In this document: piece after piece, positions 1,398 through 30,224 of the stretch
Layout: the number at the start of each line of letters is the position of its first letter
Position numbering within the stretch: the stretch's first letter is position 1
DNA from: a virus
Lineage: Duplodnaviria > Heunggongvirae > Uroviricota > Caudoviricetes
Length of the DNA: 33,365 nucleotides
Virus record (IMG/VR): IMGVR_UViG_2737471753_000001
Span: 1 to 33,365 of that record
Reading direction: 5' to 3' (one strand)
Made by a program: the position numbers and the translations under genes
The notes under the pieces: model-generated
Seen by the model: the letters and a program-made list of their open reading frames with translations, nothing else
The model's database searches: none
Told to the model about the DNA's origin: nothing

Positions 1398-1453
1398 CTT
1401 TCCCTCCCTGTGCGGCATGGTCGCATGTGCGTGCGGAGGGGGTTACTGCTTTT

Positions 1454-1477: not shown

Positions 1478-1553
1478 GCGCAGGGGTGAGATTACGCGCG
1501 TGGTGGGTGATGATTGTTGCCGAATCATTTAACGGATACAAGGGGCTGAAGCT

Positions 1554-3250: not shown

Positions 3251-3305
3251 TAAGTAATATGCAGGCGGCGCAGTGCGTCGCCTCTGACTGAAAAGGAGAC
3301 AACTG

Positions 3306-3680: not shown

Positions 3681-3844
3681 TCACCCTGGTGTGCTTTGAT
3701 CACATCGAAGATCTGGTGGCAGATATCGCCGCCATTTTTAACTGGTCGCCCGCCGAAATCTTCATGATGACGCCCGGCGAAGTGGTTAGCTGGCGTGAGC
3801 GGGCGGCACTTCGCAGCGGGAATGCAGACAATGAAGACTCTTGA
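3306..3844 (+). CDS. E+E' fusion chaperone produced by a predicted programmed -1 ribosomal frameshift
   Basis: The -1 frame is open from 3578 to 3844 and overlaps the T start; an X_XXY_YYZ slippery heptamer A_AAT_TTT lies in the E frame at 3623..3629. Mirrors the conserved chaperone frameshift upstream of tape-measure genes. Confidence 0.5.
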
Positions 3845-6638
3845 TATCCGGGTCGCTTTCAGCGCCGTTGACAGGCTGACCCGACCTGCCGAAAACGCCC
3901 GCCGCCTGATGGGGCAGTTTGGTGACTCCATCCAGCGAACGCAGGGGGCGATCAAAAATCTCGAGCGTCAGGCGCGATCATTTGAGCGCGCCCGCGACGC
4001 TGTCAGTAAAGCGGATGCGGGCATCGTGAAAGCACGACGCCAGCTTAACGCCCTTAATCAGTTACAACGCACGGGTACAGTGCTCAGCGAAAAACAACAA
4101 AAGCTGATGCAGCAGTTAAGCACCCGGCTTGAACGCCTGAATGAATCGCGTACACGGGAAATTCAGAAAATGCGGGAGCTTGGCGGAGAGCTGAAACGCC
4201 ACGGCATTTCCCTGACAGGCAGCGATAACACCATCCAGCAGGCCATCAGACGCACCGAACAGTACAACAACCAGCTTGAACGCGAACGGCAGGCGCTTGC
4301 GCGTGTAACGCGGGCGCGTGAGCGGTATTCGCGCGCGCAGGAAACAGCGGGAAAACTGAAAACAGGTGGTGCGCTGGCAATTGGTGCGGCAGCGGCGGGC
4401 GGCTATGCTGCCGGGCGTTTTTTGCAGCCTGCGATCGGGTTCGGGAAAGAGATGTCCCGCGTTCAGGCGCTGACGCGAATCGACCAGAACAGCCCACAGT
4501 TTAAGGCGCTGCGTGAGCAGGCGTTAAAACTTGGCTCTGAAACGCAGTTCACCGCTGGAGATGCCGCCAGTGGACAGGCATTTCTTGCAATGGCTGGCTT
4601 CACACCACAGGCCATTCAGGCTGCGCTTCCCGGTGTGCTGAGCATGGCAACGGCTGGCGGTATGGATCTCGGCGAGACGGCGGATATTGGCTCAAACATC
4701 CTGACGCAGTTCGGCCTTTCTGCCGACCAGATGGACCGGGTCGGTGACACGCTCACCGCAGCGTTTACCCGTACCAACACTGACCTTCGCGCACTGGGCG
4801 AAACCATGAAATATGCAGGTCCGGTGGCGGGCAAGCTGGGAATATCGCTGGAGCAGGCCGCAGCGATGGCGGGCGTGCTGGCGAATATGGGTATCAGGGG
4901 AAGTGATGCCGGGACGGCAATGCGTGCCAGCCTGGCTCGTCTGGCATCACCGCCAAAGGCGGCAGCAGAGGCGCTGAAAGAGCTTGGTGTGGCAGTCTCT
5001 GACGCGAACGGCAAAATGCGCCCGATGGAGGATGTGCTGGCCGATCTTTATAAAGCCACCCGCAAATACGGGGAAGTTGACCGGGTATCGTTCTTTAAGG
5101 ACATTGCCGGAGAAGAGGCTTTCACATCGTTTATGGCGCTCGTTGATGCAGCGGGTGACGGTTCCTTACCTAAACTGAGAAAAGAACTTGAAGGCGCACG
5201 CGGTGAGGCTGAACGCACAGCAAAGGTTATGGCCAACAACCTTGATGGCGATCTGAAATCACTCGGCAGTGCATGGGAAGGGTTGCGCATCCGCATTGCA
5301 GATCTGATTGACGGTCCGCTGCGTTCTGTCACGCAGTGGCTCACGCGGGTGGTATCAAGGGTGACGGCGCTGGCGCAGGCCCATCCGGCACTGACGCGCC
5401 AGCTACTGATAGCAGGCGGTGCGTTGCTGGCAATGACTGCAACGATTGGCTCGTTGTCGCTGGTTATTGGCGTGCTTCACGGGAAACTGGCCACGTTACG
5501 TCTTGGTTTTTCTCTCCTGACCGGATCAATGAATGTCGTCAGGGTGCTGCCAGCACTATGGGGAATGGTAACAGGTTCCATCTCGTTGCTGGGTGGCGCT
5601 ATCGGGGCGCTGTTCAGTCCGGTCGGATTGATTGTTGCCGCGTTTGTGGCTGCGGCGGTTCTCATCTGGAAATACTGGGAACCCATCAAGGCGTTTTATG
5701 CCGGGGTGTTCAGTGGGATTATGGAACGGCTGGCTCCGTTGCGCGAAACCTTTGAACGGTTTGGTCCTGTTTTTGATGTCGTGCGCGATGGGATTATTCA
5801 GCTCTTTAACTGGTTTAAATCGCTGCTGTCACCGATGGAGTCCAGCAAGGAAACGCTGGATAAATGCACCAGTGCTGGCGAGATATTCGGTAACGTTCTT
5901 GGTGGCGCGCTACAGCTTGTTCTGACGCCTGCAAAAATGCTGCTGGATACGCTGGCGTGGATACTTGAAAAACTCGGTGTGCTTCCGGATGAAGCGGAAA
6001 GGGCGAGAAAGAAAATCGAAGACGCACAGCGTGCGGCCATTCTTCAGGACAAGGTTGCCTTGCTTCAGGGGGACCTGGCGAAAATCAATCCGCCGAAGCC
6101 TGTAGAAAATGGCAATGGCACCGGAGGTGATAACCCCAAAGACAATAAACCGCTCACAGACAGCAATACTGGTACGCTGCGCAGACTCAGCAAAATTGCT
6201 GATAACACAGGTAAGCTGGTTGATGAGACGAAAAAACGCATTGGCCCCGGCGATATTGTCTTTAAGAACCTGCCCCGCGCACTTGCTGTTCGTGGGGAGT
6301 GGCAGGAGCGGAAGATTGCGCAGGTCAGTAAGCCTGCCCCCGCAATTAATATCACACCCGTGGTCCCGGCTCCGCTGCCTCCGGCGCTGGTCCCTGTTGT
6401 TGCGGCCAGCTCCCGCCCGGTGGCGGAGGCCATACGATCTCCAGTGGCATCAGTTCCTGTAACTTCCCGTAACCGGGAGCCTGTTGCCTCAGGATTTGGC
6501 GGTGAAATTCATGTTCATCTGCATAACGTCGTTACACAGAATCCCCGCGAACTGGCGAAACTGGTCGGTGAAATGGTCAGGGCAGAAATGGAACGGCGCG
6601 CCCGTGCCGGGCGTGGCAGTTTTTACGATAAAGATTGA
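3831..6638 (+). CDS. T: tail tape measure protein
   Basis: Long ORF (track 3795..6638, 947 aa) with coiled-coil-like N-terminal half, Gly/Ala-rich hydrophobic segments and a long C-terminal region; start placed at ATG 3831 (MKTLDIR...) with GGGA about 10 nt upstream; ATG 3822 is an alternative. Confidence 0.9.
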   Translation: MKTLDIRVAFSAVDRLTRPAENARRLMGQFGDSIQRTQGAIKNLERQARSFERARDAVSKADAGIVKARRQLNALNQLQRTGTVLSEKQQKLMQQLSTRLERLNESRTREIQKMRELGGELKRHGISLTGSDNTIQQAIRRTEQYNNQLERERQALARVTRARERYSRAQETAGKLKTGGALAIGAAAAGGYAAGRFLQPAIGFGKEMSRVQALTRIDQNSPQFKALREQALKLGSETQFTAGDAASGQAFLAMAGFTPQAIQAALPGVLSMATAGGMDLGETADIGSNILTQFGLSADQMDRVGDTLTAAFTRTNTDLRALGETMKYAGPVAGKLGISLEQAAAMAGVLANMGIRGSDAGTAMRASLARLASPPKAAAEALKELGVAVSDANGKMRPMEDVLADLYKATRKYGEVDRVSFFKDIAGEEAFTSFMALVDAAGDGSLPKLRKELEGARGEAERTAKVMANNLDGDLKSLGSAWEGLRIRIADLIDGPLRSVTQWLTRVVSRVTALAQAHPALTRQLLIAGGALLAMTATIGSLSLVIGVLHGKLATLRLGFSLLTGSMNVVRVLPALWGMVTGSISLLGGAIGALFSPVGLIVAAFVAAAVLIWKYWEPIKAFYAGVFSGIMERLAPLRETFERFGPVFDVVRDGIIQLFNWFKSLLSPMESSKETLDKCTSAGEIFGNVLGGALQLVLTPAKMLLDTLAWILEKLGVLPDEAERARKKIEDAQRAAILQDKVALLQGDLAKINPPKPVENGNGTGGDNPKDNKPLTDSNTGTLRRLSKIADNTGKLVDETKKRIGPGDIVFKNLPRALAVRGEWQERKIAQVSKPAPAINITPVVPAPLPPALVPVVAASSRPVAEAIRSPVASVPVTSRNREPVASGFGGEIHVHLHNVVTQNPRELAKLVGEMVRAEMERRARAGRGSFYDKD

Positions 6639-6650
6639 GGAGTCATGGCT

Positions 6651-7139
6651 ATGATGATGATCTACGGCATGTTTGTTTTTGAGCTGCGCACGCTGCCGCA
6701 TCAGCAGTTACAGCAAAACAAAAGCTGGCGGCATGTGAAAAATGAACGCGTTAACCGTTCAGCAAGCTGGCAGTATATCGGTGCAGGTGATGATCGCATC
6801 GTTCTTTCTGGTGTGCTTTATCCTGAAATTACAGGTGGCGAAGTGTCGCTGTCGCTGCTGACCACGCAGGCGTATACAGGACGACCCTGGCCTTTGATTG
6901 ATGGCGTCGGGCAGATTTACGGCATGTATGTCCTGACCGGAACGAATACGACCCGTTCCGAGTTTGATCGCTACGGTAAGGCGAAAAAGATAGAATTTTC
7001 ACTGACCCTTGAACGCTGTGATGAGGATTTGCGGGAGCGCCTGCAATCCTCATCGTTCAGTGATATGCTGTCCGGCTTCAAAGATAAGGTGACATCATCT
7101 CTTAACAGCGCGGCCAGTTCAGTTAAAGGGCTGTTCTGA
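6651..7139 (+). CDS. U: tail protein U
   Basis: Track ORF 6645..7139 (164 aa) resembles P2 gpU; SD GAGGAG at 6636..6641 is best spaced for the ATG at 6651 (MMMIYGMFVF...). Confidence 0.85.
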   Translation: MMMIYGMFVFELRTLPHQQLQQNKSWRHVKNERVNRSASWQYIGAGDDRIVLSGVLYPEITGGEVSLSLLTTQAYTGRPWPLIDGVGQIYGMYVLTGTNTTRSEFDRYGKAKKIEFSLTLERCDEDLRERLQSSSFSDMLSGFKDKVTSSLNSAASSVKGLF

Positions 7140-7150: not shown

Positions 7151-7186
7151 AACCGCTAATGGTCAGATTAGCGGTTATTTTGTTTT
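7151..7186. terminator. bidirectional intrinsic terminator between convergent U and invertase genes
   Basis: Perfect 10-bp stem AACCGCTAAT / ATTAGCGGTT with 6-nt loop GGTCAG, preceded by an A-run and followed by ATTTTGTTTT. Confidence 0.75.
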
Positions 7187-7762
7187 CTGACTCTTCTCTA
7201 TTGTTCCGCTTGATTCTCCTGCGGGGTGGTAACGATAAATCGTCGATGTACCAATGCCGTAAATTATTGCCAGTTGTTTTCTGTCGTGACCGTTTTTAAT
7301 CAGCCTTGCTATTTGCTCATGCTGTTCTTTTGTCAGCTTCGGTCGACGTCCGCCTGTGCGCCCCCGTGCGCGCGCTGCCGCCAGTCCGGCCAGTGTACGT
7401 TCAACAATTAATTCACGTTCCATTTCAGCCAGGGCACCCATCACGTGGAAGAAAAAACGCCCCATTGGAGAAGATGTATCTATGCTGTCGGTCAGACTGC
7501 GAAAATTAATCCCTCGCTCCCGTAGTTCTCCGACGAGAGAAATCAGATGTTTCATGCTTCGCCCAAGGCGATCCAGTTTCCAGACAACCAGCGTGTCACC
7601 TTTTTGAAGCCGCTTTAAAGCGCGTTTTAATCCCGGTCGGTCTGTCTTTGTCCCGCTTAATTTATCTTCAAATATTTGTTCACATCCTGCACAAACAAGA
7701 GCGTTTCGTTGCAGGTCTGTATTCTGGTCATTTGTTGATACCCTTACATAACCAATCAGCAC
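7175..7762 (-). CDS. pin: serine recombinase, DNA invertase of the Pin/Gin/Hin/Cin family
   Basis: N-terminus LIGYVRVSTNDQNTDLQRNAL... (catalytic Ser region), resolvase core ...WKLDRLGRS...SPMGRFFFHVMGALAEMERELI... and a C-terminal HTH; start placed at the GTG giving (M)LIGYVRV, as in Gin/Pin; track ORF extends to a TTG at 7780. Confidence 0.9.
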   Translation of the reverse strand: MLIGYVRVSTNDQNTDLQRNALVCAGCEQIFEDKLSGTKTDRPGLKRALKRLQKGDTLVVWKLDRLGRSMKHLISLVGELRERGINFRSLTDSIDTSSPMGRFFFHVMGALAEMERELIVERTLAGLAAARARGRTGGRRPKLTKEQHEQIARLIKNGHDRKQLAIIYGIGTSTIYRYHPAGESSGTIEKSQKTK

Positions 7763-7816
7763 ACTGAATCTCCCGTCCAAAAGCGCAAATCATGCCATGC
7801 AGGCCGGAAACGGCCA

Positions 7817-7842
7817 TTATCTAAAACCTCGGTTTACAGGAA
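7817..7842. other. left inversion crossover site (gix/hix-like, 26 bp)
   Basis: TTATCTAAAACCTCGGTTTACAGGAA; inverted-repeat partner of 10847..10872; a 24-bp perfect inverted repeat CCTCGGTTTACAGGAAACGGTAAA spans 7827..7850 and 10839..10862; matches the Gin/Hin crossover-site pattern as recalled. Confidence 0.85.
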
Positions 7843-8784
7843 ACGGTAAATCAGGCTTCTGGCGCATTACAGAAAAACCAGAACGGCGCAGATATTCCGG
7901 GGAAAGATACCTTCACCAAAATATTGGGGCCTGCCGCGCATATAGCGCATGGCTGAATATTGGTGGCGATAGTCAGGTCTGGACAACCGCACAATTCATT
8001 TCGTGGCTGGAGAGTCAGGGGCATTTAACCATCCTTACTGGATGTGCAAAGGCTCATGGCTTATGCAAATAATAAGGTCATTACAGATACAGGTTGCGGA
8101 AATATTTGTCTTGCAGGTGCTGTGGTGGAAGTTATTGGCACCCGCGGCGCAATGACCATACGCGTTACCACGCCGAGCACGTCCAGCGGTGGCGGAATCA
8201 CTAACGCTCAATTCACTTATATTAATCATGGTGATGCTTACGCTCCTGGCTGGCGACGAGACTACAACACGAAAAACCAGCAGCCTGCATTTGCTTTAGG
8301 GCAAACAGGACGCAGGGTCGCAAATGATAAAGCTGTTGGCTGGAACTGGAATAGCGGCGTTTATGATGCAGATATCAGTGGCGCATCGACATTAATCCTC
8401 CACTTTAATATGAATGCGGGGAGTTGCCCTGCTGTACAGTTCCGCGTGAATTACAGAAATGGCGGTATCTTTTATCGTTCAGCGCGTGATGGTTATGGCT
8501 TTGAAGCTAACTGGTCAGAGTTTTACACCACAACACGCAAACCCTCTGCGGGAGATGTTGGTGCATATACGCAGGCAGAATGTAACTCAAGTTTATTACA
8601 GGTATTCGCCTTGGCGGTCTGTCATCTGTTCAGACATGGAATGGTCCTGGCTGGTCTGACAGGTCAGGTTATGTCGTTACTGGTTCAGTTAACGGAAACC
8701 GTGATGAATTAATTGATACAACTCAGGCAAGGCCAATTCAGTATTGCATTAATGGAACGTGGTATAACGCGGGAGTATTTAATT
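7843..8784 (+). pseudogene. alternative tail-fibre C-terminal (receptor-binding) cassette, currently not fused to H, apparently interrupted by frameshifts
   Basis: Reading out from the left crossover site in the H frame gives fibre-like sequence that stops after about 42 codons; the protein-like reading continues through three further frames (track ORFs 7797..8072, 8044..8712, then a frame ending ...[17 protein letters not shown]...), with shifts at A- and G-runs. Confidence 0.45.
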
Positions 8785-9234
8785 ATGATGCACTTAAAAA
8801 ATATTACTGCTGGCAACCCTAAAACAAAAGAGCAATACCAGCTAACAAAGCAATTTAACATCAAATGGCTTTATTCAGATGATGGAAAAAACTGGTATGA
8901 GGAACAAAAGAATTTCCAGCCAGACACTTTGAAAATGGTCTATGACCATAACGGCGTTATTATTTGTATTGAAAAGGATGTTTCAGCAATTAATCCGGAA
9001 GGCGCAAGCGTCGTTGAATTACCTGATATTACAGCAAATCGCCGGGCTGATATTTCGGGTAAATGGATGTTCAAAGATGGCGTAGTGATAAAGCGAACTT
9101 ATACCGAGGAGGAACAGAGGCAGCAGGCAGAGAATGAAAAGCAAAGCCTGTTGCAACTTGTCAGGGATAAAACCCAGCTATGGGACTCACAGCTACGGCT
9201 GGGTATCATTTCCGACGAGAATAAACAAAATTAA
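8785..9234 (+). CDS. tail fibre assembly protein (Tfa; Mu U / P2 G family), plus-strand copy
   Basis: [22 protein letters not shown]...[41 protein letters not shown]...; RBS GGGA upstream of ATG 8785. The conserved Tfa C-terminus (...[28 protein letters not shown]) continues in another frame to about 9316, implying a 1-nt shift near 9225. Confidence 0.7.
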
Positions 9235-9328
9235 CCGAGTGGATGCTCTATGCGCAGAAGGTCGAATCCACAGACACCTCCAGCCTGCCAGTAACGTTTC
9301 CAGAACAACCAGAATGAAACAAGGCCCG

Positions 9329-9850
9329 CTATCGGGCCTTAATTTTATTCAGGCTTTTGTGGCCATTCAGGATTTGCCGTATCCACACGGCTGACCAGAA
9401 CACTATAGCGTTCCATGACTCCAGTCGTGCGCGTTCCTCATCCGTCGCCATATTCAGCCTGACAGCGCGTTCCAGTGGCTGAATAACGTTTTCTGCTTCG
9501 GAAAGTAACGCGGCCTTTTGTGATTCGGCCTGTTGTTGTTGCTCGTCTGCCGTATAAATCCGTTTAACCACAGCTCCGTCCTTAAACATCCACTTACCGG
9601 AATCATCAGCACGACGATTAGCTGTAATATCAGGAACCTCAACGACGCTATAACCTTCAGGGTTAAGCGTGGAGCATCTTTGTGATGGCGACAATAATAT
9701 TATTTGCATCGTAAACAATCTTTATGTGTCTGGCTGAAAGTTTTTCACTTCCTCATACCAGTTTTTTCCGTCTTCGGACCATAACCAGATAACATCAAAT
9801 TCTTTGTTAGCTGATATTGTTCTTTTGTTTTGGATTTCCAGACTTAATAT
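9329..9850 (-). pseudogene. P2 G-like tail fibre assembly gene remnant (minus-strand copy) with N-terminal frameshifts
   Basis: Intact C-terminal part in track ORF 9329..9718 (...[34 protein letters not shown]...); N-terminal part [13 protein letters not shown]... is readable only by switching frame at least three times. Confidence 0.55.
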
Positions 9851-10846
9851 TTTTTAAATGCTGCATAAATTACACCTGTGCGACGTTATACCATGTGCCA
9901 TTGATGTATTTTTGTATTGGTCTGAATACTGCCGGATCATCGCCATCAACTTCACCGACAATGCCAAGCCCGTAATTGCATGACCTGATTTCTCATACAT
10001 CACGCCTTTTTGCATAGTCTGAACAACACGTGTGCCAAGTCGGACATCTCTCACATAACGTGAATCAAATTGCCATAGTTGCCGGGAATAACTTGCGAGC
10101 CGCAAAGCCAGTTCCCGTTATTATCCATGTACGCCTGACCATCGGTACCATTGGCTGTCCTTGAGTTATTAATCATGTAGATGCCAAATTGCTTATTCCC
10201 CAGTCCACCAATCATAAATTTGCGATCAGCGTGGTCCTGACGAAGTAATGCCTGCGCACCATCGGTGGATACCGCATTGCGTCCCCAAATAACATTCTGG
10301 TCACGCATATGAATCCACATGCCGGTACTACTGTTAATTGCAAAACGGTTTGCAATATATCCCTGTAACATCAAGACCATGCCCATGCTTATCCGACCAG
10401 TTCTAAGGTTAATCGTAAAGGGGCGTAATGGCCCTATATCACCATTTTCTCCCTCATTCTCTCGTGTAGGGATGATATGCAGGCATTCTTCAGAACGGCG
10501 AAAAATGGCACCAAAAGATGAATTAAATATCCTCAGTGCATTGACTGTCGATATTTTTACTTCACTGCTGAAAAGGCTTTAACAAGACAGACAAAGCATC
10601 CCATTTAAGATTCATCAGGTCTTTTGTTGTGGTGCTTTGTTTGCTTCTCCATTTGAAATATTCATTGCCGTTGTCGCCTGTTTCAAACCACATGTATGAA
10701 TCAGTATCGCTATCGGCATCATTTTAAAACCAATCTTTGCCCAGTCAGTATTTCGAATCCAGGCAAGGATTGAGTCGTTTTCAAATTAAGCCCACCGGAC
10801 AAGGTATCGCCATTTTTTTGCACGGCGTACCAGCCCTGTTTACCGT
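9851..10846 (-). pseudogene. P2 H-like tail-fibre C-terminal cassette (currently joined to H) degraded by frameshifts and stops
   Basis: Fibre-like sequence is scattered over three frames (GNAVQKNGDTLSGGL..., ENDSILAWIRNTDWAKIGFK..., ...FDSRYVRDVRLGTRVVQ..., ...GEVDGDD..RPIQKYINGTWYNVAQV*), with a stretch around 10390..10560 closed in all frames. In the current orientation H terminates 21 codons past the crossover site. Confidence 0.5.
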
Positions 10847-20547: not shown

Positions 20548-22299
20548 ATGATTCAGGACGCTTTTGTGCGCCAGCGTGCGCGGCAACTTTACTGGCAGGG
20601 TTATCCGCCCGCAGAAATATCACGTCTGATGGGAATAAACCCGAACACGATTTATGCGTGGAAAAAACGCGACCAGTGGGATGAAACGCCACCCGTGCAG
20701 CGTGTCACGCAGTCCATCGATGCGCGCCTCATCCAGCTTACTGAAAAACAGAATAAAACAGGTGGTGACTTTAAGGAAATAGACCTGCTGACCCGGCAGC
20801 TTAAAAAACTGCATGATGGCCAGCCGGATGCGACGGCCACAGGAAAGAAAGGCCGGGCGAAAAAACTTAAAAATCATTTCACGCCGGAGCAGATTGCCGC
20901 ACTGCGGGAAAAAATCATCAGCAGGCTGGAGTGGCATCAGCGGGGCTGGTTTGACTCCCTGACCCTTTGCAGTGAAGCCGGGATACGTAACAGGATGATC
21001 CTGAAATCCCGACAGATTGGGGCGACCTGGTATTTTGCACAGGAAGCACTGCTGATGGCGCTGCGTGACGATGTGGCACAACCTTACCAGCGTAACCAGA
21101 TTTTTTTGTCTGCGTCGCGTCGTCAGGCGTTCCAGTTTAAAAGCATTATTCAGAAGGCCGCGGCTGAAGTTGATGTGGAGCTGAAAGGGGGCGATAAAAT
21201 CATCCTCTCCAACGGCGCAGAACTGCATTTTCTCGGTACTTCTGCTGCGACGGCACAGTCCTACACAGGCAATTTTTATTTTGATGAATTTTTCTGGGTC
21301 AGTCGCTTTGCTGAACTGCGCAAGGTGGCTGGCGCTATGGCAACCCTCAGCGGACTGCGGCGCACCTACTTCTCCACGCCATCAACCGAAACGCACGAGG
21401 CATACGTCTACTGGAACGGCGACCGCTGGAACGAGAAAAAGGCCGCGCATAAACGCCAGCGTTTTTCTGTGGACTGGAAAACGCTGCATAACGGGCTTAT
21501 CTGCCCCGACCGGACGTGGCGGCAAATTGTCACGCTGGAAGATGTGGTTAATCACGGCTGGAAACACACCGATATTGATGAAATTCGTGATGAAAACACC
21601 GAAGACGAGTTCCGCAATCTCTATATGTGTGAGTTTGTCCGCGAAGGGGAATCGGCATTTAACCTGAATATCCTGATTGGCTGCGGCGTTGACGGATACG
21701 ACGACTGGAAAGACTGGAAACCTTTTGCTCCCCGCCCGATGGGAAATCGTCCGGTATGGATTGGGTATGACGCAAACGGCAGCAGTGGCAACGGCGACAG
21801 CGGCGCTGTGTCCGTGGTGGTTCCTCCGGCTGTTCCTGGTGGCCGTTTTCGAACGGTGGAGACGCGACGCGTTCAGGGGCTGGAGTTTGAAGAACAGGCC
21901 AGAGTCATTGAAGAGTTCACGTGTCGCTACAACGTGGAACACATCGGCATTGATGTGACGGGCGGGAACGGGGAGGCTGTTTATCAGATAGTGAAACGGT
22001 TTTTCCCTGCTGCTATTCCGTACACCTTCACGCTGTCATCAAAACGGTCGCTGGTACTGAAAATGCTGCAAATAATGCGTGCCGGGCGGTGGGAATACGA
22101 TCGCGCCGAACGCGAACTGGTCGCGGCCTTTAACGCCGTGCGTAAGGTGAAAACACCGGGCGGCTTTATCACTTACGAAACGGACCGCGCGAGGGGGATC
22201 AGCCACGGCGACCTTGCGTGGGCGACCATGCTTGCTGTCATTAACGAACCGATTGGCGGCGAAGGAGAAAACGAGCGTTTCACGGTTATGGAGTTCTGA
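20548..22299 (+). CDS. P: terminase large (ATPase) subunit
   Basis: 583-aa ORF; size and sequence fit P2 gpP; divergent from O as in P2. Confidence 0.9.
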   Translation: MIQDAFVRQRARQLYWQGYPPAEISRLMGINPNTIYAWKKRDQWDETPPVQRVTQSIDARLIQLTEKQNKTGGDFKEIDLLTRQLKKLHDGQPDATATGKKGRAKKLKNHFTPEQIAALREKIISRLEWHQRGWFDSLTLCSEAGIRNRMILKSRQIGATWYFAQEALLMALRDDVAQPYQRNQIFLSASRRQAFQFKSIIQKAAAEVDVELKGGDKIILSNGAELHFLGTSAATAQSYTGNFYFDEFFWVSRFAELRKVAGAMATLSGLRRTYFSTPSTETHEAYVYWNGDRWNEKKAAHKRQRFSVDWKTLHNGLICPDRTWRQIVTLEDVVNHGWKHTDIDEIRDENTEDEFRNLYMCEFVREGESAFNLNILIGCGVDGYDDWKDWKPFAPRPMGNRPVWIGYDANGSSGNGDSGAVSVVVPPAVPGGRFRTVETRRVQGLEFEEQARVIEEFTCRYNVEHIGIDVTGGNGEAVYQIVKRFFPAAIPYTFTLSSKRSLVLKMLQIMRAGRWEYDRAERELVAAFNAVRKVKTPGGFITYETDRARGISHGDLAWATMLAVINEPIGGEGENERFTVMEF

Positions 22300-23345
22300 T
22301 GAGCAGAAAAAATAAAAAAGTGCGCATGAGTTCACGCATTGATCTCGCTGATGCGCTCAGGAAAGAATCATCGCTCAGTGCATTCACATTTGATGGTCCT
22401 TATCGCCTGACCGGGCATGACCTGCTGGACAATATGTACTGTGCTGATAACGGGCGGTGGTATGAAACCCCGGTGGACTGGTACGGTCTGGCAAGAGCTG
22501 CCCGGCAAACGTCCTGGCATCAGTCTGCGCTTTACTTTAAGCGCAATGTATTGCTCGGTTGCTATATTCCTCACCCGCTGCTTTCCCGGCAGGATTTCTC
22601 GGCGCTGGCGCTGGACTGGTTTGTGTTCGGTAACGCATTCCTTGAGCTTCGAAGCAATATGCTCGGTGAACCGCTTAAATTACGGCACGCCCTGGCGAAA
22701 TACATGCGACGCGGAAGCGATCTTGAATCATGGTGGTATGTGCAGGATGGCAAGGACGCGTTCCAGTTTCGCCCTGGCAAAGTGTGCCACCTGATGAATC
22801 CGGATATTAACCAGGAAATCTACGGCATGCCGGAATATCTTGGCGCATTACTCTCGGCCAGCCTGTCTCATTCGGCGGACATGTTCAGAAAACTGTATTA
22901 CGACAACGGATCCCACGCCGGGTGCATCATCTACATCGGTGCAGCGCAGGTAAACCGCGAAAGCATGGACTCCCTGAAAGAAACGCTACAGGGGGCACGT
23001 GGTGGTGGTGCGTTTAAAAACGTGCTCATTCATGCGCCCAACGGGGGCAAAGAGGGGGTGCAAATTTTGCCGTTCCAGCAGATCACCGCAAAGGATGAGT
23101 TCATGAATGTTAAGGCGGCATCCCGTGATGATGTGCTGGCTGCGCACCGCGTTCCACCGCAACTGATGGGGGCAATGCCGGGCGAAAAAAGTGCGTTTGG
23201 TGATGTGGAGAAGGCCGCGCGGGTTTACGCAATTAACGAGCTGATGCCCGTCATGGAGGCCATGAAGCACATCAATGACTGGCTTGGCGAAGAGGTGATC
23301 CGCTTTAACCCTTACGCACTGTTAGACACCCAGCCCACATCCTGA
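22299..23345 (+). CDS. Q: portal protein
   Basis: 348-aa ORF, start overlapping the P stop; fits P2 gpQ. Confidence 0.9.
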   Translation: MSRKNKKVRMSSRIDLADALRKESSLSAFTFDGPYRLTGHDLLDNMYCADNGRWYETPVDWYGLARAARQTSWHQSALYFKRNVLLGCYIPHPLLSRQDFSALALDWFVFGNAFLELRSNMLGEPLKLRHALAKYMRRGSDLESWWYVQDGKDAFQFRPGKVCHLMNPDINQEIYGMPEYLGALLSASLSHSADMFRKLYYDNGSHAGCIIYIGAAQVNRESMDSLKETLQGARGGGAFKNVLIHAPNGGKEGVQILPFQQITAKDEFMNVKAASRDDVLAAHRVPPQLMGAMPGEKSAFGDVEKAARVYAINELMPVMEAMKHINDWLGEEVIRFNPYALLDTQPTS

Positions 23346-23796: not shown

Positions 23797-23810
23797 GTGT
23801 GAAGAGCAAT

Positions 23811-23840
23811 AAAAAAGGGCTTTATTAGCCCTTAATTTTT
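23811..23840. terminator. bidirectional intrinsic terminator at the 3' end of the cargo operon
   Basis: Stem AAGGGC / GCCCTT with 7-nt loop, flanked by an A6 run and AATTTTT; on the minus strand the hairpin is followed by TTTTTTATT just after the PIN-like gene stop. Confidence 0.7.
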
Positions 23841-24477
23841 ACCTTCCCCAGTCCCGATCAGGAAGTCTATCTTTGAAGGCAAGGTAATCGTAAAACTCAC
23901 GAGTATGGGAAAAAATACATTCGCACATTGCAGCGCCAGCGTTTGAAAGAGCCAATTTCAACATGCCGTCAGGTTTAGGATTGCTCACCAAATTTTCATA
24001 AACTTGAGCCTGATCTAAACCGTGGACACATAACAAAAGCGAAGACTCAAAGGTAACAACCGCATCCAGTAAACGCTGATGAATCACGGAAAGGGTCGGT
24101 TGGTTTGCAACAATTGCAGTCAAACAGCGGCGATCACCAGTCATAAAAATGGCTTCTGGGTTCTCTATGCACGAGGCAAGCAATAGCTGTTCGCCTACAT
24201 CAATTCCGGGCACACTCCCCAAAAGCTCAATAAGCTGGGAGTCCTGAACTTCCGGGATATCCTGTACAGATTCAATGAAGGCTCCCACTTGCTCGTAAAC
24301 AACTTGGCTACCACACTTCCTGATTGCTTTATCAGGATTTTTCGGCAGAAGCTGAAAACGAGCAGCAGGGTTAATGAAGATCTGTTCGGGGGGTTGATTA
24401 AAAACCACTGGCAGTTGTGATAACAGATTGCACTGGGCCAGCTTCAAAATGACATCATTATCAGAAAGAACAATCAC
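23839..24477 (-). CDS. PIN-like (DUF4411-type) putative nuclease, second gene of cargo cassette
   Basis: 212-aa ORF, GTG start with SD GGGGAA, beginning (M)IVLSDNDVILKL (PIN beta1-Asp pattern) with later acidic motifs (...IFMTGDRR...); start 4 nt downstream of the upstream gene's stop; AT-rich relative to phage core. Confidence 0.5.
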   Translation of the reverse strand: MIVLSDNDVILKLAQCNLLSQLPVVFNQPPEQIFINPAARFQLLPKNPDKAIRKCGSQVVYEQVGAFIESVQDIPEVQDSQLIELLGSVPGIDVGEQLLLASCIENPEAIFMTGDRRCLTAIVANQPTLSVIHQRLLDAVVTFESSLLLCVHGLDQAQVYENLVSNPKPDGMLKLALSNAGAAMCECIFSHTREFYDYLAFKDRLPDRDWGR

Positions 24478-24480
24478 TTA

Positions 24481-25479
24481 TTATTCCCCGATTAGATTTT
24501 CTAAAACCTTAAGATCATCTTCGTGGATATTTTCTAAATCCATCCCGCTTTTCATCATGGCCCTCACAAAATCCTGATCTGAGTCTTCACCAGCGCAGAG
24601 TGATTTAACAGCGTTAACAGCAACGCCCCAGCAGTTCTGCGCGAAACCATAATTTAAAGCGATGTGAGTTGGGTCAATGTGATTATCACTTCCAAACTTT
24701 TGAGCTGCGCGAGCCAAGCCTGGCCCGTTCAACCTGCCAGCGGTAGGAACGATACGTAAAGACTTCTGCCCCGAAATGACCTGGAAGGCGAATTCGTTAG
24801 CTTCTTTCTCTACGTTGTCCGTCGAAGCATTCTCAATTTTTGCGTCAATATGGCACTGCCCGTTTTCTGCGTTCAGATGCCCTCTGGCGATATGGCCTAA
24901 CTCATGCGCGAGATCAAACAGCATATAGCCGTATTTCTGAGGCTGAGTAAGAACAATCACCGGGCGCCCGTGACTCATTAGCGCCAGTCCGGCCATTTTT
25001 TTTGCAGCTTGTGGGAAGCATTTTAGATAAACAACAGGAATGCCAATCGAATGACAGTATGTTACCAGGCTATCTAGCGACACCCATGATTCCTTAGTAA
25101 GGATCTGGGTTCTTATCGCCAAAGGATCCAGCACTGCACTAGCATCGTAAGGGACTTTGAAATTAGACGCGACAATACCGGCCGCAGTATAGGCAACAGC
25201 AGTAGCGATATCTAAATCGTTCTCGGCTACATTTTGGCGATGTTTATATTTATGGTTTCCACCAAAATTAAAGCATACCCCTTCGCTACCATCTTTCAGG
25301 CTATCCGGGAGAATGCTAAACATACGCGCAAGGTGCAGGCACGCATACTGGCGCCCTGATGGGGTGTCAGCAAGCTTCTCATCCCACCAATCAGGCAACA
25401 ACCTGCGGATGTAAGAGAGATTAAACCCGGCCCGGCCGAATTTAGAATATATCTGACTCATCTGATTATGGTTCGTCAT
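24481..25479 (-). CDS. COG2856 / ImmA-IrrE family zinc metallopeptidase-domain protein, first gene of cargo cassette
   Basis: 332-aa ORF with AGGAGG RBS; central ...GIPVVYLK...PVIVLTQPQKYGYMLFDLAHELGHIARGH...EKEANEFAFQ... (HEXXH plus downstream E-x-EAN-FA signature) and unassigned N- and C-terminal regions. Confidence 0.7.
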   Translation of the reverse strand: MTNHNQMSQIYSKFGRAGFNLSYIRRLLPDWWDEKLADTPSGRQYACLHLARMFSILPDSLKDGSEGVCFNFGGNHKYKHRQNVAENDLDIATAVAYTAAGIVASNFKVPYDASAVLDPLAIRTQILTKESWVSLDSLVTYCHSIGIPVVYLKCFPQAAKKMAGLALMSHGRPVIVLTQPQKYGYMLFDLAHELGHIARGHLNAENGQCHIDAKIENASTDNVEKEANEFAFQVISGQKSLRIVPTAGRLNGPGLARAAQKFGSDNHIDPTHIALNYGFAQNCWGVAVNAVKSLCAGEDSDQDFVRAMMKSGMDLENIHEDDLKVLENLIGE

Positions 25480-25637
25480 AAGAGCCTCCTAACTGCGTGT
25501 GTAAGCGAAATGCCATTTATTATTAGCTTAGTTATGACACAAAAGCGCGCACACTATAAGCATAAAACGGCGAAAGTCATAACTATTTCGGTTGTGTGGA
25601 AAATGGGTAATTTCTTCTTAGAGCAGCTTATATCGGC

Positions 25638-28025
25638 TTAGTTCCGCGAAAATGCCGCTTTCATCCTATTCACAAGATCGCTTGTTTTTTGCTTCGCCGC
25701 CATCACTTGCGACGGCAGCCTCTCCAGCCCCGACGCGGCCCGGTTGCGCGATACCAGCCGCCCGTCCTGCACGGTCATAACAAGATCGCCGCACGCCACT
25801 GACGCACCGGCCATCATCGATCTGACCATTCCGGCGCTGGCATCAATCCCACGTAGCGCCAGCAGTTCACTGATCTGCTGCTCTTTCACGGATAACCCGT
25901 CCCCGTCTTTCCGTTCCGGTGGCCGTTTTTTACGCTTACTGCGCACATCGTCACTAAGCCGCTGCGCCAGTTCTCGCTTTTCCTGCCGGGAAAGCGCATC
26001 AAAATTCACCGTCACGCCCTCAGCTGGTGCAGTCATTTCTGACTGCCCTTTAGCTTCGCTGGCGGCATGTTCAACACCGTCAGCACCTGCCGCGGGATCC
26101 CGCGTACAGTTATTGACAGAACTCCGAGGGGCGGCGCTGCCGCCTGAAAAACCAACGTCAACGGCCACACCGTCAGCGCTCTGGCGCTTCGGCACGATTT
26201 TGTATTGAGTGGTGCGGGTGAAGATCAAAGAGTCATTGCCCGTGATCGGGCAGTAAATACCAGTGATTCGCTGGACGTTATCGCCGTAGGCGTTGCCATT
26301 TTCAGTGATTTCATAGTTCAGACGGATGCGCAGTTTATCGCGCTCAACCAACGGGCCACCCTGGGCTAATACGTAGTTATCCCATTCACCACCGTTAGCA
26401 GCCTGCCGGGCGGTTTCCAGTTCAGGGTGTAACACCAGTTCGCGATCGCCCAAGCGGCGAAGTTCGCGATATACCGTGACCGGCGCACCGCCGATCTGCT
26501 GAAACTGGCGAATAGCCCAGCGCGATGCCCACGCGCTAACACGGAGTGACATTTCTTTCAGGTCTTCCCCGGTTTCGTCGTCCTTCTCACCATCCAGCGC
26601 GAAGCCGTCGATATTCTTCGAAATGTATTTCGCTATGTAGCCGGTTGCGCTGCCGTGGGCATCGTCGATCGGCACAACCTGAAAGCGGTTTTCCTGCGCT
26701 CCCGGTTCGTTGCCGTCTTCTTTCAGGGCATATTTACGGAAGATTTCGCGCGCCTGCTCGACGCATTCCGGGCGCATAAAAAGAAGTAAATGCCAGTGTG
26801 GCGTTGCATCGTGGTGCGGTTCGACCACGCGGAAACCAAAGACGCGGATCCCTTTTCTCTTCCACGCTGCGCGGGTTCTCGCCCAGACTTTGCAAAGATA
26901 TTGCTGCGTCTCGCGCGGCGACGCGCCACAGTATTTATTATTGCGGCGCCCGTTATGCTGCATGGAGTGGTAACGGGAAGGTGCTGTCAGCGTGTAGAAG
27001 TCACCGGCCAGCCCTTCCAGCTTCGCCAGATCTTCAAATCCGCGCATTCTCGTCATGAGTTCGCGGCGACGGTTGGCCGGATTGGCAACACTACCGGCGA
27101 CTTTATCGATCAGTGAAATGCGCTCGCCCGTGTCCTGGTCTTCCAGCTCCATAGCCTTAAGGTATTCACGGTTAGCCTTTTTCTGGGCCAGCCATTCCGT
27201 AAGGCACGGGGCGCTACTGTATGGGGAAGATTTTTTCTGGACGTATCCCGCCGCGATCATCAAGTGCTCACGCCATCGGGCATGGATACGGCGCAGGCGG
27301 TTTAACCACCATTGCGGTGACTCAAGACGGAGAACCGCGCGTAACGCGTCCTCCGCTTCAAGTTCTTCATTGCAATACGCTGTCCAACCTGGGATCGGCG
27401 TTTTTAGATGCACCGCCAGCGACGCAATACGGCCATAGCCAGAAAGCGCCGCGAACTCAGGATCGCCGGTGCGCGCCAACTGGTAATCGGACTCGCGTAT
27501 AAACTCGCTCGTAAAGATATCGGCAAGCGTATAAGCCAGTCTTTTTAACTCTTTTTTCCCTGCCCAAAGCATACGGAAAAGCTGATCGCGGATTGGCAGC
27601 AGAATGCCAGGCATCACAGTGTCAGGCTGGTAAACACTGTTCACGCTATCAATACGTGTTAATACGTGGCGCTCAAAGGTATTAACCAGCCAGTGATCTG
27701 CCGCTTTGCGGTCTTTCGCGTCCAGTGCATCCAGCTTCGCGGCAAAGTGGCGGCGGATATACTGCGGAAGGGAAGCCAGACGGCGACGCAGCAGCTTGCT
27801 GCGCTCCGACTTTTCGTCCTCCGCTACCAGTTCACTGAACGCAATATGCTTGCGGGTGCCGTCCGGCGTGAGATAGTCGAAACCATCCAGCCCCGTCGCT
27901 ACATCAACGCCAATCGGCTGGTATGGTTTGTTCCCGCCATAAGCGTAAGGGGTAGCATTATCAGTGCTACCCGAATACGGTGGAGGTGGAGAAGGGGCGC
28001 GACGGCCACGGGTTGCCGTAGTCAT
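25638..28025 (-). CDS. A: rolling-circle replication initiator (gpA family)
   Basis: 795-aa ORF with ...HWHLLLF... and ...GYIAKYISK... motifs typical of P2 A-type nicking initiators; start overlaps the methyltransferase stop. Confidence 0.9.
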   Translation of the reverse strand: MTTATRGRRAPSPPPPYSGSTDNATPYAYGGNKPYQPIGVDVATGLDGFDYLTPDGTRKHIAFSELVAEDEKSERSKLLRRRLASLPQYIRRHFAAKLDALDAKDRKAADHWLVNTFERHVLTRIDSVNSVYQPDTVMPGILLPIRDQLFRMLWAGKKELKRLAYTLADIFTSEFIRESDYQLARTGDPEFAALSGYGRIASLAVHLKTPIPGWTAYCNEELEAEDALRAVLRLESPQWWLNRLRRIHARWREHLMIAAGYVQKKSSPYSSAPCLTEWLAQKKANREYLKAMELEDQDTGERISLIDKVAGSVANPANRRRELMTRMRGFEDLAKLEGLAGDFYTLTAPSRYHSMQHNGRRNNKYCGASPRETQQYLCKVWARTRAAWKRKGIRVFGFRVVEPHHDATPHWHLLLFMRPECVEQAREIFRKYALKEDGNEPGAQENRFQVVPIDDAHGSATGYIAKYISKNIDGFALDGEKDDETGEDLKEMSLRVSAWASRWAIRQFQQIGGAPVTVYRELRRLGDRELVLHPELETARQAANGGEWDNYVLAQGGPLVERDKLRIRLNYEITENGNAYGDNVQRITGIYCPITGNDSLIFTRTTQYKIVPKRQSADGVAVDVGFSGGSAAPRSSVNNCTRDPAAGADGVEHAASEAKGQSEMTAPAEGVTVNFDALSRQEKRELAQRLSDDVRSKRKKRPPERKDGDGLSVKEQQISELLALRGIDASAGMVRSMMAGASVACGDLVMTVQDGRLVSRNRAASGLERLPSQVMAAKQKTSDLVNRMKAAFSRN

Positions 28026-28936
28026 TGCGCGATCTCCATGTAGGCTTTTAAGAAAGTAGCGGCTGCATAGATATTTACGGCGTTTCCGCTGGCGCGTAGT
28101 TTTCCCACTCTGGAGGGAACCCCATCAACCAGAGGCTTAAGGCCGGGTTTAACTGGCCTCCACTTTCCATCTCTGCAAAAGAGCCAGTCAGCAGATCCCC
28201 AGAATCCGTTAACCGGGCCGGGCCTGCTATCTGCGCTGTCACATCCAGCGTATCCGTTGACAGCTTCCCGTGCCGCATCCTTCCCCCCTGATACCCGCCC
28301 TTTCCATCCCTCGCCGTAGGGGTGGGCCAGCCCGCAAGACAAGCAAAGTCCTGTAAGTTCGACTGCCGACCAGCCAGCTTCTTGGCGATCACCTTCTCGG
28401 CATCCTGATAAGCGTTCTTCGTATTGCTCGCGGTTGGAGTCGGCCAGCCAGTAAGTACGCTCCCGGATGTGCGGCGCACCGACGCCCGCAGACGGAAACG
28501 CCGACGCCCCGAAGGCATAGCCCAAACTTTCCATGTCTGTTTGTACAAGGTCGATCCAGACTTCTGCATCTTTGCTTGAAGACTGTTCGCCAAATATAAC
28601 GACAGGGCGTTGCTGGCCTGCAAGCCAATGAACGGCGGGCCATAGGTGCCGCTCATCATCAAATTGTTTTCCTTCGCCTGCCTGGCTGAAAGGTTGGCAT
28701 GGGCAACTTGCTGTCCATACTGGGCGGTCATCCGGCCATCCTGCAACGCGCAAAGCCCGGGGCCAGCCTCCAAAACCTGCAAACAGGTGGACTTGAGAGA
28801 ATCCTTTAATGTCATTTGGGGTTACATCCTCAACGGAACGAGTATCAACAACGCCGGAAGCGATAAGCCCGGCATCAATGAGGTTGCGCAGGTATTGCGC
28901 GGCGAAGGGGTCGATTTCGTTGTAGTAGGCGGTCAC
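28022..28936 (-). CDS. DNA (cytosine-5) methyltransferase, possibly frame-disrupted
   Basis: 304-aa frame carries C5-MTase motif I (FAGFGGW), motif IV (SCPCQPFSQAG), a motif VIII-like HIRERTYW and a C-terminal GNAV; a +1 frame (track ORF 28075..28815) is open across most of the gene and carries a duplicated GWPTPTA motif. Confidence 0.65.
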   Translation of the reverse strand: MTAYYNEIDPFAAQYLRNLIDAGLIASGVVDTRSVEDVTPNDIKGFSQVHLFAGFGGWPRALRVAGWPDDRPVWTASCPCQPFSQAGEGKQFDDERHLWPAVHWLAGQQRPVVIFGEQSSSKDAEVWIDLVQTDMESLGYAFGASAFPSAGVGAPHIRERTYWLADSNREQYEERLSGCREGDRQEAGWSAVELTGLCLSCGLAHPYGEGWKGRVSGGKDAAREAVNGYAGCDSADSRPGPVNGFWGSADWLFCRDGKWRPVKPGLKPLVDGVPSRVGKLRASGNAVNIYAAATFLKAYMEIAQ

Positions 28937-29253
28937 TGCTGCCCCTCCGCCTTTCGGCTACACCGATCGATTACTTGGTACTGAATTTCTAAACCCAGCT
29001 TTTCAGCAAGCGCGTGCTCTGCCTTAGCTCCCGCAGACTGCTGCCAGCCATCCAGCAAGAAGATCCCGTCAGCACAACGCAACATGGCGAAGCAAATATC
29101 CATGTATTCCGCCTGCTCTAATCCGTCCGGCAAAATCGCCGGATTAAGGGCAACGTTTCCGCGTCGCACTACGTGCCCAGCTGCACGGTTAAAAGCCTGC
29201 CGATTGAATCCAGGCAAACCGCTCATCGGGCCAGCGATATAGATTTTTGCCAT
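28933..29253 (-). CDS. DUF4406-like (nucleoside 2-deoxyribosyltransferase-like fold) protein
   Basis: 106-aa ORF MAKIYIAGPMSGLPGFN...; coupled (overlapping start/stop) to the Dam and C5-MTase genes. Confidence 0.5.
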   Translation of the reverse strand: MAKIYIAGPMSGLPGFNRQAFNRAAGHVVRRGNVALNPAILPDGLEQAEYMDICFAMLRCADGIFLLDGWQQSAGAKAEHALAEKLGLEIQYQVIDRCSRKAEGQQ

Positions 29254-30224
29254 TAAAAAGCCTCCAGATCGCCAAACGTGCCCGCCGCAACCATCGCGTT
29301 GTAAGTCGCATCACCCATCACGGCGCCACAATCAGGGCAACCGCCGCCGTAACGCCCGCAGCAGTCGCAGACAGGCAGCACGCCGATCACTTCTTTGGCC
29401 TTCTGTCGGTTGTTTTTGTCAGTGCTGACGGAACGTTGCACGCTGATTTTGTGCATCTTGAAGGGCTGATAAATCGCGCGGGTGGCTTCGGTGTCGCTGT
29501 TGGAAATGACGACCTTCACGCCATGCTTACGGTTAACTTCCAGCAGTGCCTGGACTAACTGGCGGTGGTTGTCTTCCGTGAATGGTTCGGTGTGGTATTG
29601 GGTAAAATCGGCTGTTTTGCTTTCAGGCAGGTAAGGCGGATCGCAGTAAACGAGAACATCGCCACCCGTGACGACCTGTAGAGAACGCTGGAACGGCGCG
29701 CACAGAAATATTGCCTTTGTATCGTTGGCCTTTTCGGCAAACAGGCGGATTTCATTTTCAGGAAAGTAGACGCTCTTATACTTGCCAAACGGCACGTTAA
29801 AGCCAGTCTTCCGGCTGTATCGGCATAAGCCGTTATAACCGTGGCGATTCAGATACAGGAATTGAGCAGCGCGCATAATGCACGCCATTTCAGCGCCATA
29901 ACGCAACCCACCGCTTTTGACCGTACCCACCTGCTTATTGAACGCGGCGCGGACTTCGTTGTATCCCTGCGGGCTGTTCTTACTGTTGAACAGTTCACGG
30001 GCCGCATCGATCACTAAGTCCGGGTAACGGGTGACTTCCCGATACAGGTTAATAAGATCCGGGTTGATATCAGCCAGCACATAGCGGCGGTATTCAGTCG
30101 CCAGAAATACCGATGCGCCGCCTACGAACGGTTCGATCAGGCAGTCGGCTTTAGGAAGATGCGGCAGCAGGTCAGGGAGGACACGGGTTTTTCCCCCTGC
30201 CCATTTGATGAACGGGCGGATCAT
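29253..30224 (-). CDS. dam: DNA adenine methyltransferase (Dam-like, N6A) with Cys-rich C-terminal extension
   Basis: Start placed at MIRPFIKWAGGK (SD GGAG upstream); DPPY motif (...VYCDPPYLPE...); C-terminal tail ...PVCDCCGRYGGGCPDCG... resembles a zinc ribbon. Confidence 0.8.
   Translation of the reverse strand: MIRPFIKWAGGKTRVLPDLLPHLPKADCLIEPFVGGASVFLATEYRRYVLADINPDLINLYREVTRYPDLVIDAARELFNSKNSPQGYNEVRAAFNKQVGTVKSGGLRYGAEMACIMRAAQFLYLNRHGYNGLCRYSRKTGFNVPFGKYKSVYFPENEIRLFAEKANDTKAIFLCAPFQRSLQVVTGGDVLVYCDPPYLPESKTADFTQYHTEPFTEDNHRQLVQALLEVNRKHGVKVVISNSDTEATRAIYQPFKMHKISVQRSVSTDKNNRQKAKEVIGVLPVCDCCGRYGGGCPDCGAVMGDATYNAMVAAGTFGDLEAF

Follow-up and report, generated by a model that had tools for sequence, protein, structure and literature searches.

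A two-gene metallopeptidase and PIN-like protein cassette at the gpA–Q hotspot of a P2-like prophage, a candidate defence module of the toxin–antitoxin type

In P2-like phages, the position between the replication endonuclease gene A (gpA) and the portal gene Q houses old and tin as well as a number of validated defence systems (Rousset 2022; Vassallo 2022). Here we describe a cassette of two genes that occupies this position in the IMG/VR virus record IMGVR_UViG_2737471753_000001, of which positions 1 to 33,365 were analysed (33,365 nucleotides, hereafter the window). Gene 1 encodes an ImmA/IrrE-type (M78) metallopeptidase and gene 2 a PIN-like protein. A first-pass annotation, made from the sequence alone, had singled out the pair as candidate anti-phage cargo. 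We examined the gene structure, the protein families, the distribution of the pair and its relation to known systems.

Results

Two minus-strand genes with their own expression signals lie between gpA and Q

The window is a complete P2-like prophage, reading from ogr to the integrase gene, and an identical copy is found between fieF and cpxP of Escherichia coli 81009. Its cos-adjacent gpA–Q interval contains two open reading frames (ORFs) on the minus strand, gene 1 and gene 2, both of which the first-pass annotation had delimited correctly. The features of the locus are as follows:

22299-23345, plus strand: portal gene Q
23807-23833, minus strand: intrinsic terminator with a 7-bp stem (AAGGGCT/AGCCCTT), a 5-nt loop and a T-run (terminator scan, stem-loop and T-run at 23833-23815, and sequence read)
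23839-24477, minus strand: gene 2, 212 aa, GTG start, PIN-like protein
23842-24027, minus strand: helical extension of gene 2, about 60 aa, with a conserved NPKPDG motif
24028-24477, minus strand: PIN core of gene 2, about residues 1-150
24475-24483, minus strand: gene junction TAA TAA GTG, a double stop followed by an in-frame GTG, with GGGGAA ahead (sequence read)
24481-25479, minus strand: gene 1, 332 aa, ATG start, ImmA/IrrE-type (M78) metallopeptidase
24781-25044, minus strand: M78 peptidase core of gene 1, residues 146-233 (PF06114 envelope and domain-level PADLOC matches)
24892-24906, minus strand: HELGH zinc-binding and catalytic motif, H192-H196 (sequence read, invariant in the alignment)
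25480-25637, minus strand: regulatory region of 158 bp owned by the cassette (found with the cassette in 13 E. coli genomes and in no others)
25485-25490, minus strand: Shine-Dalgarno sequence AGGAGG of gene 1, 5 nt ahead of the ATG (sequence read)
25529-25538 and 25576-25585: arms of a perfect 10-nt inverted repeat, 37 nt apart, candidate operator
25553-25580, minus strand: sigma-70-like promoter candidate, ATGACT, 16-nt spacer, TATAGT (consensus scan, 9/12 matches)
25638-28025, minus strand: replication endonuclease gene A (gpA)

The assignment to an accessory position, as the first-pass annotation had it, is borne out by the neighbours and by the distribution of the cassette. In the RefSeq annotation of the identical E. 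coli 81009 DNA the pair is flanked by a 'replication endonuclease' (gpA) and a 'phage portal protein'. The cassette is present in 13 of 5,426 complete E. coli genomes, whereas the adjoining cos-side flank occurs in about 1,120. Both marks of P2 hotspot cargo (Rousset 2022), the gpA–Q location and the variability among related phages, are found here. The cassette is also richer in AT than the phage core, as had been noted before: its GC content is 0.455 versus 0.535 in the remaining prophage, and the GC content at third codon positions amounts to 0.43-0.48 in the two genes versus 0.61 in gpA and Q. When equal-sized windows elsewhere in the prophage were considered, only 5% matched the AT-richness of the cassette.

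The two genes share the same reading frame, and the distance from the stop of gene 1 to the GTG of gene 2 is 3 nt, not 4 nt as initially given. Such a short gap, which in homologues is often an overlap, is consistent with translational coupling. The other expression signals attributed to the cassette at the outset, namely the AGGAGG sequence, the 158-bp upstream region and the stem-loop terminator with its T-run, were all recovered. The promoter consensus scan as a whole did not exceed the shuffled expectation. On the other hand, a non-coding block of about 66 nt that contains the promoter candidate is about 92% identical even in the cassette lineage with only about 56% protein identity, so that the promoter block (25529-25585) is better conserved between the lineages than the coding sequence. 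Within it, the inverted repeat TAGTTATGAC/GTCATAACTA brackets the -35 and -10 elements, and its 9-nt core is kept at the same spacing in 12 loci, including one of the divergent lineage (L086). Judging from these patterns, the block at 25529-25585 may be a promoter with an operator. The 158-bp region (25480-25637) contains no credible small ORF, and no ORF for a small regulator fits into it. We also considered that this region might be a shared backbone feature of the hotspot, an idea that was rejected since it is present only in the 13 cassette-bearing E. coli genomes. A 57-aa ORF with an ATG start (25468-25641, plus strand) runs antisense over the promoter region into the 5' end of gene 1 and is probably spurious.

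Close variants of gene 1 differ by 128 synonymous versus 27 non-synonymous codon changes and those of gene 2 by 83 versus 25, with zero premature stops in either gene. This excess of synonymous differences without premature stops indicates that both genes are real and under purifying selection. Homologues of both extend across phyla.

Gene 1 encodes a metallopeptidase of the M78 family

The gene 1 product matches Pfam PF06114 (Peptidase_M78; COG2856, DUF955) with an E value of 1.1e-7 and 32.2 bits (cutoff 22) over residues 146-233. In an alignment of 63 homologues, with identities down to 31%, H192, E193, H196, H201, D212 and E224 are invariant, and by analogy E224, which lies in an E..AN.FA helix downstream of HExxH, would be the third zinc ligand. 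An N-terminal LPxWWD motif (residues 28-33) is likewise invariant across the 63 homologues. The closest folds to the structure model are CapP and IrrE. Together, the above-cutoff PF06114 match, the invariant HExxH and the CapP/IrrE-like fold sustain the initial COG2856/ImmA-IrrE assignment. The C-terminal part of CapP and IrrE is a GAF-like sensor domain; the corresponding part of gene 1 is all-helical in the model.

Searches against PADLOC gave matches to PD-Lambda-2_B, capP and twelve RmrA profiles, all confined to the peptidase core. The best of these was PD-Lambda-2_B (E 9e-10), and the RmrA profiles ranged from E 4.6e-6 (23.7 bits) to 3.7e-3. Profile searches of the PDB with the N-terminal 118 and the C-terminal 95 residues detected no helix-turn-helix (HTH) domain, nor did anything else in the PDB match these profiles, and a Pfam scan of N-terminal fragments found no HTH either. 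From these null results, gene 1 is best described as an apparently active, predicted M78 peptidase flanked by family-specific helical regions.

Several distant homologues of gene 1 (P0187, P0188, P0192, P0194, P0197, P0200, P0206 and P0209; see also L006:6001-7032) carry precomputed Pfam matches to Peptidase_U49. This is the family of Lit, the phage-exclusion protease of e14 that cleaves EF-Tu. On sequence grounds, these matches hint that the gene 1 family may be intermediate between M78 and U49.

Gene 2 encodes a PIN-like protein of a widespread family

The structure model of gene 2 has a predicted local distance difference test (pLDDT) score of 94 and adopts a VapC-type PIN fold, a three-layer alpha/beta/alpha arrangement with a central parallel sheet as in solved PIN domains. 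The only invariant columns among 83 homologues (20-44% identity) are D6, D8, G95, E96 and D115; E144 and D170 follow with a conservation of at least 90%. In the model, D6 and D8 follow straight after beta1, E96 starts a helix, D115 lies in a T-G-D element after a strand and E144 in a T-F-E element after the last core strand. As modelled, these acidic residues match the canonical catalytic positions of PIN/VapC proteins. The PIN-like fold, which the first-pass annotation had suggested and recommended to check by structure prediction, is thus upheld by a confident model with correctly placed acidic residues.

The same annotation had recommended searches of Pfam and defence-system profiles with both proteins; they placed gene 1 in M78 and returned no match for gene 2. 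More precisely, gene 2 matched nothing in Pfam at E<=1, including PIN, DUF4411 and DUF3368, nothing in NCBIfam and nothing in PADLOC at E<=1. In PHROGs it matched only a family of unknown function. Against the PDB, phmmer retrieved nothing relevant and a profile search nothing at all. The family itself is large: a word-indexed search collected 96 clusters, and an exhaustive profile search about 1,550 representatives at 50% identity clustering. Among the best 150 of these representatives almost all are standalone proteins of 200-215 aa.

The two genes form an obligate and mobile pair

To survey the pair we used one genome per species and obtained 43 full-length relatives of gene 1, 41 of which had enough downstream DNA. 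A gene 2-family ORF follows immediately downstream on the same strand in 38 of these 41 loci, and gene 1 occurs without gene 2 in the other three. The intergenic gap lies between -33 and +27 nt in 35 of the 38 pairs and is often a 4-nt overlap. The gene 1 relatives come from Proteobacteria, Planctomycetota, Verrucomicrobiota, Cyanobacteria, Chloroflexota, Acidobacteriota, Armatimonadota, Ignavibacteria-like bacteria and Myxococcota. When viral contigs were collected with gene 2 as the seed, gene 1 was directly upstream in each of the 26, and no gene 2 without gene 1 was seen among the gene 2-seeded loci. The protease gene comes first in all paired loci. No fusion of gene 1 and gene 2 domains of the Rosetta-stone kind was present among the 362 proteins examined. 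Gene 1 and gene 2 therefore constitute an obligate, horizontally mobile module.

In 23 of the 26 viral loci the pair is bordered by homologues of gpA and/or Q, with gpA identities from 34 to 100%. The viral loci fall into two cassette lineages, with proteins about 97% and about 56% identical. As the gpA/Q flanks are kept despite gpA identities down to 34%, both lineages sit at this one hotspot in P2-like phages that have diverged from each other. The pair was also found in a metagenomic chromosome, where it is surrounded by metabolic genes, and on a Pseudomonas megaplasmid. Another copy (L093) is located on Enterobacter soli pENTAS02 (NC_015969.1, 32,574 bp), which was deposited as a plasmid, yet is a P2-like phage genome encoding capsid, terminase, portal and gpA; here the cassette is again at gpA–Q, and its gene 2 is 96% identical. 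Among 50,697 deposited phage genomes (INPHARED; tblastn, E 1e-5) no homologue of gene 2 was detected. So far, the module has been seen in prophages and metagenomes (26 IMG/VR contigs and 13 E. coli prophages) and not in isolated phages.

Distant family members adjoin beta and cII or an HTH-like gene

In 7 of the 38 species-level pairs, which are among the most divergent ones, the pair stands directly beside homologues of P4 beta and P4 cII (L035, L038, L044, L047, L051, L052 and L054; for example L047:7597-9298 and L052:2230-3952). The beta homologue matches Beta_protein PF14350 with E values of 1e-53 to 1e-63 and corresponds to PADLOC PD-Lambda-2_C. The cII homologue, of about 200 aa, is encoded convergently after Beta_protein (BLASTP E 2e-14) and, to judge from its EIKSD motif, may be a PD-(D/E)xK nuclease. 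The layout of the seven loci is that of P4 gop-beta-cII with the M78 and PIN-like pair in the position of gop. Gop itself was considered as a relative of gene 2 and rejected (hhalign probability 0.1).

Three Pseudomonas loci contain an additional small gene that encodes about 131 aa, bears an Xre-like HTH signature and runs into the start of the gene 1 homologue (L094:3591-3986, L003:4594-4998 and L038:5132-5470; missed by the gene caller in L003). Its Pfam HTH matches are below threshold (E 0.006-0.07). These loci represent the full 'three-component' form, HTH plus M78 plus PIN.

Other features of the prophage

Further accessory cargo is located between gpA and the early genes (28022-30224). 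It comprises a DNA cytosine methyltransferase gene overlapping the end of gpA, a gene for a DUF4406 protein and a truncated Dam methylase gene. The tail block FI-FII-E-T-U (1554-7139, plus strand) runs opposite to gpD and ogr (1-1088, minus strand), with which it is co-directional on the P2 map. The gpD annotation covers only 266 aa, and a partial pseudogene is adjacent to it. The prophage in the window may be rearranged in this part (288-7139) and tail-defective. A recombinase/invertase gene (7175-7762) lies beside several frameshifted or partial genes for tail fibres and tail-fibre assembly (7175-10086). This segment is the part of the prophage with the lowest GC content (0.40-0.49) and looks like a decayed invertible tail-fibre segment.

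Discussion

A TA-type abortive-infection module is the most likely explanation

We propose, in line with the candidate reading of the first-pass annotation, that the cassette is a self-contained module of the toxin–antitoxin (TA) type, carried as lysogenic-conversion cargo and most likely serving as an abortive-infection defence against other phages. To this explanation we assign a probability of roughly 0.6. It is founded on the combination of two enzymes that retain their active-site residues, strictly linked genes whose translation is coupled, a promoter and a terminator of their own, mobility and location in a defence hotspot. In the mechanism that we envisage, both genes would be transcribed from the cassette's own promoter, perhaps under control through the 10-nt inverted repeat, and translated in a coupled fashion. 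The PIN-like protein would be the effector, a VapC-type metal-dependent nuclease and probably an RNase. The M78 metallopeptidase would be its partner, which would hold the nuclease inactive in the lysogen and serve as sensor or switch; from the linkage of their genes, we infer that the two proteins bind each other. A cue from infection would then alter the activity or stability of the protease. Conceivable routes are self-cleavage, cleavage of the C-terminal extension of the nuclease, or titration or destruction of the protease. The freed nuclease would finally halt the cell or the phage. The polarity assumed here, with gene 1 as the antitoxin, is suggested by the ImmA antitoxins of RosmerTA systems and by the fact that gene 1 is found alone and gene 2 never.

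Several points weigh against this explanation. The pair is not among the systems that the main text of Rousset 2022 reports as tested or validated, only three of eight additional P2 candidates tested there were active, and the hotspot also carries non-defence cargo, for example partition systems and a cytolethal distending toxin (Rousset 2022). Sequence support for the PIN assignment is marginal: 2 of 83 family members match Pfam PIN PF01850, with a best E value of 0.0013, and the best Foldseek E value for gene 2 is 0.31. Some chromosomal copies reside among metabolic genes and not in defence islands. PADLOC yields domain-level matches for gene 1 and none for gene 2, and therefore makes no system call. 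Finally, as the Xre-M78 protein is toxic in PD-lambda-2, the polarity could be the reverse here.

With such a reversed polarity, the M78 protein would be a toxic effector that cleaves an essential protein of the host or the phage, in the way that Lit acts on EF-Tu, while the PIN-like protein would restrain it or act as a second effector or sensor. The toxicity of the PD-lambda-2 component on its own, and its rescue by a partner, set a precedent for this arrangement. The invariant HExxH implies that proteolysis matters, the weak Peptidase_U49 matches of some distant homologues recall Lit, and Makarova 2009 reportedly predicted COG2856 proteins to be toxins. We nevertheless consider it unlikely. 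In the validated RosmerTA systems the ImmA-type proteins are antitoxins, and the protease-first order fits the commoner antitoxin-first pattern. Three loci carry gene 1 alone, which is not expected to be tolerable for a lone toxin, and an invariant PIN active site would be surprising in a mere inhibitor. Slightly less credible still is a role in pure addiction or stabilisation, in which post-segregational killing keeps the prophage or the hotspot cargo in place without any anti-phage function. The TA-like architecture, the mobility across chromosomes, P2-like phages, a phage-plasmid-like element and a megaplasmid, and the copies among housekeeping genes would all accommodate such a role. It sits less well with the recurrence of the pair at a cos-adjacent hotspot enriched for defence systems and with the association of distant members with the defence components beta and cII. 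It is important to note that many TA modules do both jobs, so this alternative overlaps with the proposed explanation.

Two further alternatives concern prophage regulation and counter-defence. As a regulator of the prophage, an ImmA-like anti-repressor protease would cleave a phage, satellite or host repressor, with the PIN-like protein processing RNA. HTH repressors are the substrates of canonical ImmA, IrrE and CapP alike, a small HTH-like gene immediately precedes gene 1 in the Pseudomonas members, and an operator-like inverted repeat surrounds the promoter. Yet the P2 version has neither an HTH gene nor a detectable HTH domain, the pair is conserved equally outside phages, and the gene strictly linked to the protease encodes a nuclease and not a repressor, all of which makes this a very improbable account. 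The lowest probability falls to counter-defence, whereby the protease and/or the nuclease would inactivate defence components of the host or of rivals during lytic growth. Both proteins resemble active enzymes, and anti-defence genes are also found in phage variable regions (Rousset 2022). Here, however, a sigma-70-type promoter and terminator of the cassette's own suggest expression in the lysogen, the pair is widespread at non-phage chromosomal loci, and the architecture resembles that of TA and Rosmer systems.

A more novel idea can also be formulated, which we offer tentatively and consider rather doubtful. The M78 and PIN-like pair might be a minimal, HTH-less 'protease-gated nuclease', in which the protease would sense infection directly and control the nuclease post-translationally, not by cleavage of a repressor. 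The pair might at the same time serve as an effector cartridge that can be swapped in and out of the gop slot in beta-cII systems such as P4 gop-beta-cII and PD-lambda-2. If this cartridge reading were true, Rosmer-, PD-lambda-2- and P4 gop-type systems would be one modular family in which exchangeable toxin cartridges are fitted to a conserved beta/cII chassis. The association with homologues of P4 beta and cII hints that hotspot systems may share a wider modular logic.

If active, the cassette would be the first experimentally tractable defence pair of an ImmA-type protease and a PIN nuclease. It is native to E. coli and compact, measuring 1.8 kb with its own promoter, and it has none of the HTH repressor control that makes Rosmer, CapP/CapH and ImmA/ImmR systems more complicated. 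For this reason, it could be a clean model of how M78 proteases in TA-like defence sense phage and control toxins. Moreover, naming the gene 2 family, which has approximately 1,550 clusters from many phyla and is absent from Pfam and PADLOC, would improve the annotation of genes now called 'hypothetical'.

Comparison with known systems

The kind of system to which the cassette belongs is already predicted and partly validated, and the exact pair is already catalogued, as Table S5A of Rousset 2022 contains WP_052929074 and WP_052929073 as the P2 hotspot entry 'Peptidase_M78 + hypothetical'. The pair is absent from the main text of the 2021 hotspot preprint and from that of the 2026 P2/P4 preprint. 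The E101 clpP-dependent TA system (Rousset 2020/21) was considered as evidence on the pair and rejected, since it involves different proteins. While the first-pass annotation could not match the cassette to a named system, it does fit known kinds, namely the class predicted by Matelska 2017 and the ImmA/Rosmer zone of Ernits 2023.

Matelska 2017 predicted three-component TA systems in which PIN-like genes (groups COG2405, DUF4411, PIN_14, PIN_20 and PIN_26) lie downstream of HTH-DUF955 genes; the class is so far only a prediction. Likewise, the PIN-like gene of the window directly follows, in the same direction and presumably on a shared transcript, a DUF955 gene with HExxH, and the Pseudomonas members carry the separate upstream HTH-like gene. 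In contrast, the P2 version and most other members lack an HTH component, none being detected in the window cassette in either fused or separate form, and gene 2 has no match to Pfam DUF4411, DUF3368 or PIN.

According to Ernits 2023, the ImmA/Rosmer antitoxin node associates with PIN-like domains, although none of those pairs was validated. ImmA-type proteins are the confirmed antitoxins of RosmerTA defence systems (Ernits 2023; Millman 2022), where a delta-rmrA construct could not be transformed (Millman 2022; Ernits 2023). Like RosmerTA (RmrT/RmrA), the cassette is a phage-borne or mobile two-gene unit of an ImmA/M78 zinc peptidase and a toxin candidate, and the PADLOC RmrA profiles match gene 1, if weakly and over the peptidase core only. 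It differs in that no RmrT profile matches gene 2 (PADLOC, E<=1) and that the N-terminal Xre HTH, frequent but not universal in RosmerTA, is undetectable in gene 1. Furthermore, 58% of the Rosmer-node pairs are toxin-first, whereas the window family is always protease-first, and those Rosmer toxins that have been validated either depolarise membranes or are of unknown type, and are not PIN proteins.

PD-lambda-2 (Vassallo 2022) consists of a HigB-like protein A, an Xre-M78 protein B, which is toxic and rescued by its partner, and a Beta-protein C; both this system and gop-beta-cII (Ghisotti 1990; Rousset 2022) are validated defence systems. Its B component gives the best PADLOC match to gene 1, seven of the 38 pairs have beta and cII neighbours with the pair in place of gop, and all of these systems are cargo of cos-adjacent P2/P4 hotspots. 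On the other hand, the window cassette has no beta, cII or HigB-like gene, and the toxic part of PD-lambda-2 is the M78 protein.

VapBC systems differ on both sides of the pair. The partner of gene 2 is a 332-aa metallopeptidase bearing active-site residues and not a small DNA-binding VapB antitoxin, and gene 2 itself has extra helices, a C-terminal extension of about 60 aa and no significant sequence similarity to VapC. With CapP/CapH, ImmA/ImmR and IrrE/DdrO, gene 1 shares the HExxH...E motif set, in addition to a fold closest to CapP and IrrE. Unlike these systems, the cassette includes no separate gene for an HTH substrate, and a single nuclease gene takes the place of a regulated operon downstream of gene 1. 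Compared with the predicted kinds, the cassette is distinctive in having no detectable HTH, an N-terminal LPxWWD domain, an invariable protease-first order, a PIN family that carries a C-terminal extension and is not covered by Pfam or PADLOC, and, in some distant members, homologues of beta and cII as neighbours.

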